Assembly (NCBI RefSeq): GCF_988242995.1
Contig: NZ_OZ547043.1
DNA length: 64,000 nucleotides
Direction: 5' to 3' (one strand)
Part shown: piece after piece, positions 59,418 through 59,948 of the stretch
Layout of the letters: every line of letters begins with the position of its first letter
How positions within the stretch are numbered: the stretch's first letter is position 1
Program-made: the position numbers and the translations under genes
Notes under the pieces: model-generated
What the model was told of the DNA's origin: nothing
The model's database searches: none
Seen by the model: the letters and a program-made list of their open reading frames with translations, nothing else

Positions 59418-59948
59418 TCAGGCTCCGGATGACTTTCGTTTTTTCTCCAGCTCCTGGCGCTTTTTTTCCAGGAGATGCTCCTGCATGGCTTTCAGATATG
59501 CATTTTCTGCGCGAAGATAACGCAGCTCATTCTTCATCTCTTCCGGCGTCATGTTTGCCTCGTTTTCATGGGTATCATCAGAACGGGTCATGCTTTTCTC
59601 CTTCCTGCGCCTGATAAAGGCCTCATTACCAGATTTGCGGTAGCCTTTTATCCAGTTTTTAACCGTGTTGTGGCTGGGAATGTTAAACCGGGCAGCTACC
59701 CGGGGTAGAGACTCAGAATGCCCGAGAGCATAAAGAACCACGCAAAGTTTATCTTCAGGAGAATAGCTACGCTTGTGTCTGCAATCCAGTGCCCGAGGAC
59801 CGTGAAGAAGAAAAAGATTAATCCAGTGTGAGAGGCTGGTGTGAGAAAGTTGAAAGAGTTTTGCCGTAGAAATGATGCCTGCATGACCAGCCAGGTAATG
59901 ATTTACAGCGGCAAGTTTTACTTCAAATGAATGTTTCATAAACTGCAC
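59418..59948 (-). CDS. IS3-family transposase OrfA (helix-turn-helix DNA-binding domain plus leucine zipper)
   Basis: 176-aa ORF MQFMKHSFEVKLAAVNHYLAGHAGIISTAKLFQLSHTSLSHWINLF...; its 3' end carries the A-AAA-AAG slippery heptamer (minus-strand complement of the T-run at 59461-59467). Confidence 0.8.
   Translation of the reverse strand: MQFMKHSFEVKLAAVNHYLAGHAGIISTAKLFQLSHTSLSHWINLFLLHGPRALDCRHKRSYSPEDKLCVVLYALGHSESLPRVAARFNIPSHNTVKNWIKGYRKSGNEAFIRRRKEKSMTRSDDTHENEANMTPEEMKNELRYLRAENAYLKAMQEHLLEKKRQELEKKRKSSGA

Follow-up and report, generated by a model that had tools for sequence, protein, structure and literature searches.

A_AAA_AAG as the probable programmed -1 frameshift site of an apparently intact IS1397 copy inserted between folA and apaH

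The heptamer A_AAA_AAG at positions 59460..59466 (minus strand) of the window, i.e., of the whole stretch of 64,000 nucleotides that was analyzed, very probably serves for programmed -1 ribosomal frameshifting in an intact copy of the insertion sequence IS1397. This reading is drawn from the phase and position of the motif, from its conservation among copies of the element and from the identity of the predicted fusion protein with a known transposase. The motif, the predicted SD sequence and the hairpin of IS1397 have already been catalogued by Sharma et al. 2014 (PMC4066793), and the frameshift of IS1397 is annotated routinely in RefSeq; the finding is an ordinary one and contributes nothing new on frameshifting. 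Regarding the annotation, the two ORFs are to be described as a single gene for the IS1397 transposase, expressed with ribosomal slippage, and not as two hypothetical genes or as a pseudogene. Regarding the strain, the sequence points to an intact and probably mobile IS1397. The insertion in the folA-apaH spacer is a useful lineage marker, because no complete E. coli genome examined has an insertion in the REP which it occupies, and it is a sign of recent transposition.

Classification and features

Sequence comparison identifies the segment 58559..59990 (minus strand, 1432 bp) as a full copy of IS1397, a member of the IS150 group within the IS3 family. When compared with the RefSeq elements named 'IS3-like element IS1397 family transposase', whose entries consist of a two-piece CDS annotated as 'programmed frameshift', the identity was 99.9% across all 1432 bp. 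The sole difference from the IS1397 copy of SCU-102 is located at 59098 (CGA vs CGG) and is synonymous.

The left terminal inverted repeat (TGAACTGCACCCCAAATGTTGGACA; 59966..59990, minus strand) begins with TG, and the right one (58559..58583; TGAACTGAACCCCAAAACCTGGACA on the plus strand) ends with CA when read on the element's own strand. The repeats are imperfect (TGAACTG[C/A]ACCCCAAA...TGGACA), with 21 of 25 positions pairing between the two ends and with the termini TG...CA (TGAAC...GTTCA). The 16-nt core of the repeat is found only at the two IS ends within the window, where 0.1 occurrences are expected by chance. As the longest exact stretch shared by both repeats is 8 nt, they are missed by a repeat search with a 9-nt seed; they were located by direct comparison of the ends combined with a pattern search.

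The features by which the element was assigned to the IS3 family are the TG...CA repeats, a target duplication in the range of 3-4 bp, overlapping ORFs in phases 0 and -1, an HTH in OrfA, and an rve core in OrfB with DD(35)E spacing and a K/R seven residues past the E. The insertion at the centre of a REP/palindromic unit is specific to IS1397. All sequence-level defining features of IS1397 that were tested are present. The definition of the IS3 family is reportedly that of Mahillon and Chandler (1998). No site inside the element was found in a scan with the sigma-70 consensus. One terminator-like hairpin is present on the opposite strand, a number within chance expectation.

Among 5,426 complete E. 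coli genomes, about 1,700 contain full-length IS1397. The element is nearly always chromosomal, and as many as 40 places match it in a single genome. About 1,780 complete E. coli genomes, including K-12, are without a full IS1397 and carry a 65-bp fragment of its right end. The fragment of K-12 MG1655 (between yhhI and yhhJ; retrieved locus 401..465) is 95% identical to IS positions 1368-1432, and this type of fragment looks like an old solo-end remnant. Some well-known strains contain broken IS1397 copies only. In UTI89, orfA has lost 1 bp at IS position 197, and in Nissle 1917, orfB has lost 5 bp at IS positions 615-619; both copies are 'frameshifted' pseudogenes in RefSeq, and the heptamer itself is intact in both.

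Reading frames and slippery motif

The gene orfA (59418..59939, minus strand) extends from the ATG at 59939 to the TGA at 59420..59418 and encodes an HTH DNA-binding protein of 173 aa. The frame of orfB (58591..59526, minus strand) is -1 relative to orfA and is open from 59526 to the stop codon at 58593..58591. The two frames share 109 nt, and within this overlap A_AAA_AAG is the only in-frame X_XXY_YYZ motif. Read in the orfA frame, the minus strand at 59471..59451 is CTG GAA AAA AAG CGC CAG GAG; the A7 run (59467..59461) is followed by the G at 59460, AAA and AAG are the frame-0 codons of the heptamer, and the TGA of orfA follows 39 nt past the heptamer.

An earlier note on this DNA had described an A-AAA-AAG motif at the end of orfA with orfB open in the -1 frame, and reading of the sequence confirms its codons, strand, frame relation and coordinates; the range flagged there (59418..59500) spans the heptamer, the proposed stimulators and the orfA stop codon. 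Both frames are open at the heptamer, and the -1 frame continues from there for 289 codons, through HTH_21 and the DDE (rve) core, without any stop before that of orfB.

The bare heptamer is present in 20 copies in the window vs 16.6 expected, an unremarkable count. What makes it meaningful is the context, i.e., that it is in phase, lies within the overlap and is conserved. The sequence A7G was invariant across eight aligned IS1397 copies, a set which includes one copy of 97.4% identity and two pseudogenised copies.

Transposase

Slippage by -1 at the heptamer gives an OrfAB protein of 449 aa with the junction ...HLLEKK-APGAGEKTKVIRSL..., the OrfB portion being read from 59460 to the stop codon at 58593..58591. 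The peptide predicted across the junction is ...LLEKKAPGAGEK... (also given as ...HLLEKKAPGAGEK...). The 449-aa sequence is identical to an IS1397 transposase of NCBI that is recorded on 71 contigs, and the exact sequence of the orfA protein belongs to a cluster of 2287 members.

Pfam matches were HTH_28, HTH_29 and HTH_Tnp_1 for the OrfA part and HTH_21, rve and rve_2 for the OrfB part; the whole protein scored 386.9 bits against NCBIfam transpos_IS3 (cut-off 160). In an alignment of OrfAB with eight IS150-group relatives (nine sequences), the catalytic residues D295 (in WVTDITEF; codon at 59056..59058, minus strand), D355 (in LHSDQGW; 58876..58878, minus strand) and E391 (in AVMENFF; 58768..58770, minus strand) were invariant, as was K398, which follows E391. 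Between D295 and D355 there are 59 residues, and the gap of 35 residues between D355 and E391 corresponds to a DD(35)E spacing. The DD(35)E-K arrangement of OrfAB is what we take to be the signature of the IS3 family. The continuous OrfAB that the earlier note proposed, with HTH and DDE domains, is thus present in the translation (HTH_28 and HTH_21, rve and rve_2, and the triad D295/D355/E391), and the canonical IS3-family arrangement named there can be specified further as that of IS1397.

Stimulatory signals and proposed mechanism

Upstream of the heptamer, at a distance of 12 nt, the sequence contains an SD-like GGAG (59478..59481, minus strand), which is within the SD range of 6-17 nt applied in Sharma et al. 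2014 (PMC4066793). The GGAG is part of a small predicted hairpin, CAGGAG-CAU-CUCCUG (59469..59483, minus strand; dG -8.0 kcal/mol, z = -2.0), a 6-bp stem in which the GGAG pairs with the adjacent CUCC. As far as the folding model goes, this hairpin could mask the SD-like stimulator or could serve as an attenuator. The C->T variant at IS position 519, of the type found in UTI89 and Nissle 1917, retains the affected pair as G.U.

Downstream, where the earlier note had advised looking for a stem-loop, a hairpin of 38 nt is predicted (59419..59456, minus strand; dG -12.4 kcal/mol, z = -3.43), and 2 of 200 shuffled sequences folded equally well. It consists of a 4-bp outer stem, an internal loop of tandem A.G/G.A, and a 7-bp inner stem with one bulge that is closed by an A-rich loop of 11 nt. 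The hairpin begins 3 nt past the heptamer, and its 3' arm reaches into the stop codon of orfA, of which it covers the first two bases (59420..59419). One natural variant, at IS position 565, changes a U.G pair of the inner stem into U-A; it is the single informative change seen in that stem among the IS1397 copies, which are too similar to each other for covariation testing. Folds of 91-100 nt around the site gave z-scores of -1.2 and -1.4 and were indistinguishable from shuffled sequence. An extended outer stem starting at the G of the heptamer was considered and rejected, because two natural variants break its pairs outside the 38-nt hairpin and only the 38-nt core stands out. A scan of the region against Rfam matched no frameshift element or other RNA family.

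The spacer of 3 nt is shorter than the 6 nt of IS150, IS2, IS911 and IS600. Measured against the usual ranges for stimulators (a structure at about 4-10 nt and/or an SD at 6-17 nt), the GGAG lies at 12 nt and the hairpin at only 3 nt. Sharma et al. 2014 list the orfA of IS1397 in their Table S8 as cluster A_AAA_AAG_5, which comprises 59 genes. All of these (100%) have an SD as well as a hairpin, the latter with a length of 38 nt, a spacer of 3 nt and a first stem of 4 bp (PMC4066793). The GGAG and the 38-nt hairpin found here agree with that prediction (PMC4066793). According to the same authors, -1 frameshifting in the IS1397 cluster "can be safely inferred", and A_AAA_AAG is one of the three -1 motifs that work most efficiently in E. 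coli (PMC4066793).

In the proposed mechanism, ribosomes starting at the orfA ATG (59939) would reach 59466..59460, where AAA occupies the P site and AAG the A site. On a fraction of them the two Lys-tRNAs would re-pair one base in the 5' direction (AAA AAG to AAA AAA), after which GCG would be read next and the 449-aa OrfAB transposase would be made. Ribosomes that do not slip would stop 13 codons later and release the 173-aa OrfA, presumably a DNA-binding regulator, as in related elements. Pairing of the GGAG with 16S rRNA and the 38-nt hairpin 3 nt past the motif would raise slippage, and the frequency of the shift, i.e., the ratio of OrfAB to OrfA, would set the rate of transposition. We infer the slip of the Lys-tRNAs, the action of the stimulators and the roles of the products from IS150, IS911, IS3 and dnaX (PMC5009743, PMC4066793); the general role of OrfAB frameshifting across the IS3 family is reviewed in PMC5009743.

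It is very improbable that the shift takes place mainly at another position, namely 21 nt downstream at a second run of A (GAG AAA AAA CGA; A6 at 59439..59444, minus strand), where a single A-site tRNA would slip on an A_AAA tetramer. Both frames remain open at that run, and tetramers of this kind can shift when a strong stimulator is given (PMC4066793). The protein record MCW7009108.1 joins orfA and orfB exactly there (...EKKRQELEKK-TKVIRSL...). This is one record, however, vs 71 contigs annotated with the heptamer junction. The second run is moreover not a full heptamer, so that a P-site tRNA would need to re-pair on GAA; it sits in the loop of the only hairpin predicted downstream of the heptamer, with no structure predicted directly 3' of it; and tetramers depend on a strong stimulator, with levels about ten times lower than those of the best heptamers (PMC4066793). 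At best, the run may be a minor alternative shift site beside the heptamer. The protein of MCW7009108.1 has the same length as OrfAB and differs from it in seven residues, an inconsistency of annotation.

Slippage of the RNA polymerase, by which the A7 run would give rise to A8 (or A6) transcripts with orfA and orfB fused and translated in the normal way, is more improbable still. A homopolymeric run is indeed present, and transcriptional realignment supplies the transposase in some IS elements; the bacterial cases in the same review, however, involve runs of nine A or T, for which seven is short (PMC5009743). The run is also phased as X_XXY_YYZ in frame 0, and the SD-like sequence and the hairpin on either side of it belong to ribosomal, not transcriptional, recoding. 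The homologous motifs of IS150 and IS911 are said to shift ribosomally, reportedly after work by Vogele et al. in 1991 and Polard et al. in 1991, respectively. A ribosomal shift at the heptamer is the preferred reading of the site.

Insertion site and integrity

The element is flanked by a 3-bp target-site duplication, ACC, with the left copy at 59991..59993 and the right copy at 58556..58558 (both minus strand), in the arrangement ...GCCGGATAAGACGCGACC / IS / ACCGGCGTCGCATCCGGC.... Joined to each other, the flanks form the palindrome GCCGGATAAGACGCGACCGGCGTCGCATCCGGC, in the middle of which the IS is inserted; the element splits a REP/palindromic unit (GCCGGATAAGACGCGACC|GGCGTCGCATCCGGC; flanks at 58526..58558 and 59991..60025 of the window) in the spacer between folA and apaH. 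Removal of the IS and of one ACC reconstructs the empty site; over 300 bp, the resulting sequence matches the folA-apaH spacer present in several complete E. coli genomes with 100% identity.

A junction probe (100 bp of IS and 100 bp of flank) for the insertion at the folA-apaH REP was covered by at least 80% in 0 of 5,426 complete E. coli genomes. The best partial matches reach 20-35 bp past the end of the IS, which suggests that other IS1397 copies have similar flanks, as expected for REP-like sites, and which agrees with the published specificity of IS1397 for REPs (PMC1525189). The insertion of IS1397 into REP/PU sequences is described in PMC1525189, where the literature on the element (Bachellier 1997; Clement 1999; Wilde 2001, 2003) is cited. 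As the empty site is known at 100% identity and the occupied site was found in none of the 5,426 genomes, the insertion is private to this lineage and probably recent. An effect of the insertion on the neighbouring genes was considered and rejected, because folA and apaH converge on it and the IS lies beyond both 3' ends.

The view of the earlier note that the element is intact and potentially active is upheld, as far as sequence can indicate this, by the complete inverted repeats, the 3-bp duplication, the exact empty site, the common OrfAB and the private insertion site; the copy appears to be functional and to have moved recently. It is extremely improbable that the heptamer is a coincidence and that orfA and orfB are the halves of a transposase gene broken by mutation in a dead element. 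The frequency of the heptamer in the window, which matches chance, would be compatible with such a state, and truly broken IS1397 copies are known, e.g., those of UTI89 and Nissle 1917. Against it, the two-frame layout with an in-frame heptamer recurs in six relatives from Proteobacteria and Firmicutes, the full-length element is present in the numbers given above (about 1,700 of 5,426 genomes, up to 40 copies in one), and none of the complete genomes examined has an insertion at the site of the present copy. An intact element with a programmed shift is the reading retained here.

Comparison with related elements

With respect to IS1397 as known from ISfinder, RefSeq and the literature, the present copy is one synonymous base apart, with the same length of 1432 bp, an identical OrfAB, and an insertion at the centre of a REP with a 3-bp duplication; only the insertion site differs, the folA-apaH REP being occupied in 0 of 5,426 complete E. 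coli genomes. ISKpn1 of Klebsiella belongs to the same family and, by its description, resembles IS1397 in targeting PUs (PMC1525189).

IS150, the type member of the IS150 group, has in common with IS1397 the layout of orfA, orfB and OrfAB, an OrfA of 173 aa, the heptamer, a downstream hairpin and the DDE core, with an identity of 51% in OrfB. The two elements differ in their stimulators, as IS150 has a 10-bp perfect stem 6 nt past the motif and no SD, whereas IS1397 has the interrupted 38-nt hairpin at 3 nt and the upstream GGAG. We know of no targeting of REPs by IS150. IS911 and the dnaX gene of E. coli share with IS1397 the succession of an upstream SD-like sequence, A_AAA_AAG and a downstream structure, but have no sequence similarity to IS1397 around the signal. 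IS911 belongs to another subgroup (IS3 group) and has a three-way junction as its structure, whereas dnaX is a cellular gene in which the shift yields the shorter product.

A tblastn search with OrfB against plasmids yielded relatives with 43-55% identity in OrfB. All six of the relatives with two ORFs (IS150, ISKpn8, a Klebsiella element, ISBce15, ISEnfa3 and a Staphylococcus aureus element) carry within their overlap an A_AAA_AAG that is in frame with orfA. Downstream hairpins were folded for three of them; they begin 6 nt past the motif and gave -17.0 kcal/mol (z = -5.2) in IS150, -19.1 kcal/mol (z = -4.8) in the Klebsiella element and a weak -7.6 kcal/mol (z = -1.5) in ISEnfa3.

The six relatives have a conserved '(EN)AYLKK' (in IS150, 'YLKK'), whose KK is encoded by the heptamer. 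The equivalent of IS1397, 'ENAYLK', has the non-slippery CTG AAA GCC, and the IS1397 heptamer is located nine codons further 3' (region of IS1397 compared, 59466..59500 of the window). The distance from ENAYL to the first conserved motif of OrfB is 26 residues in IS1397, ISBce15, ISEnfa3 and the S. aureus element alike. Tentatively, and at somewhat less than even probability, the shift site of IS1397 may have changed its position in the orfA/orfB overlap in comparison with the related elements, the stimulators also being different. ISEnfa3, from an Enterococcus faecium plasmid, contains two in-frame A_AAA_AAG motifs in an overlap of 133 nt (retrieved locus 849..855 and 924..930) and looks like a possible intermediate. 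If true, this would be a case of turnover of a recoding site, in which the signal was rebuilt nearby and the protein architecture preserved. Such a displacement is not stated in the sources examined.

Regarding closer relatives, the tblastn search of plasmids returned none with an OrfB identity between 60% and 95%, a sensitive blastn search of E. coli genomes showed no intermediate relative among the matches listed, and the matches listed in a large protein search were IS1397 copies with 99-100% identity. Among the Firmicute relatives, the first heptamer overlaps a T_TTA_AAA motif. In ISKpn38 and a related element of an E. coli plasmid (43-44% identity in OrfB) the transposase is encoded by one uninterrupted ORF (retrieved loci 229..1761 and 220..1764, respectively), with no frameshift.
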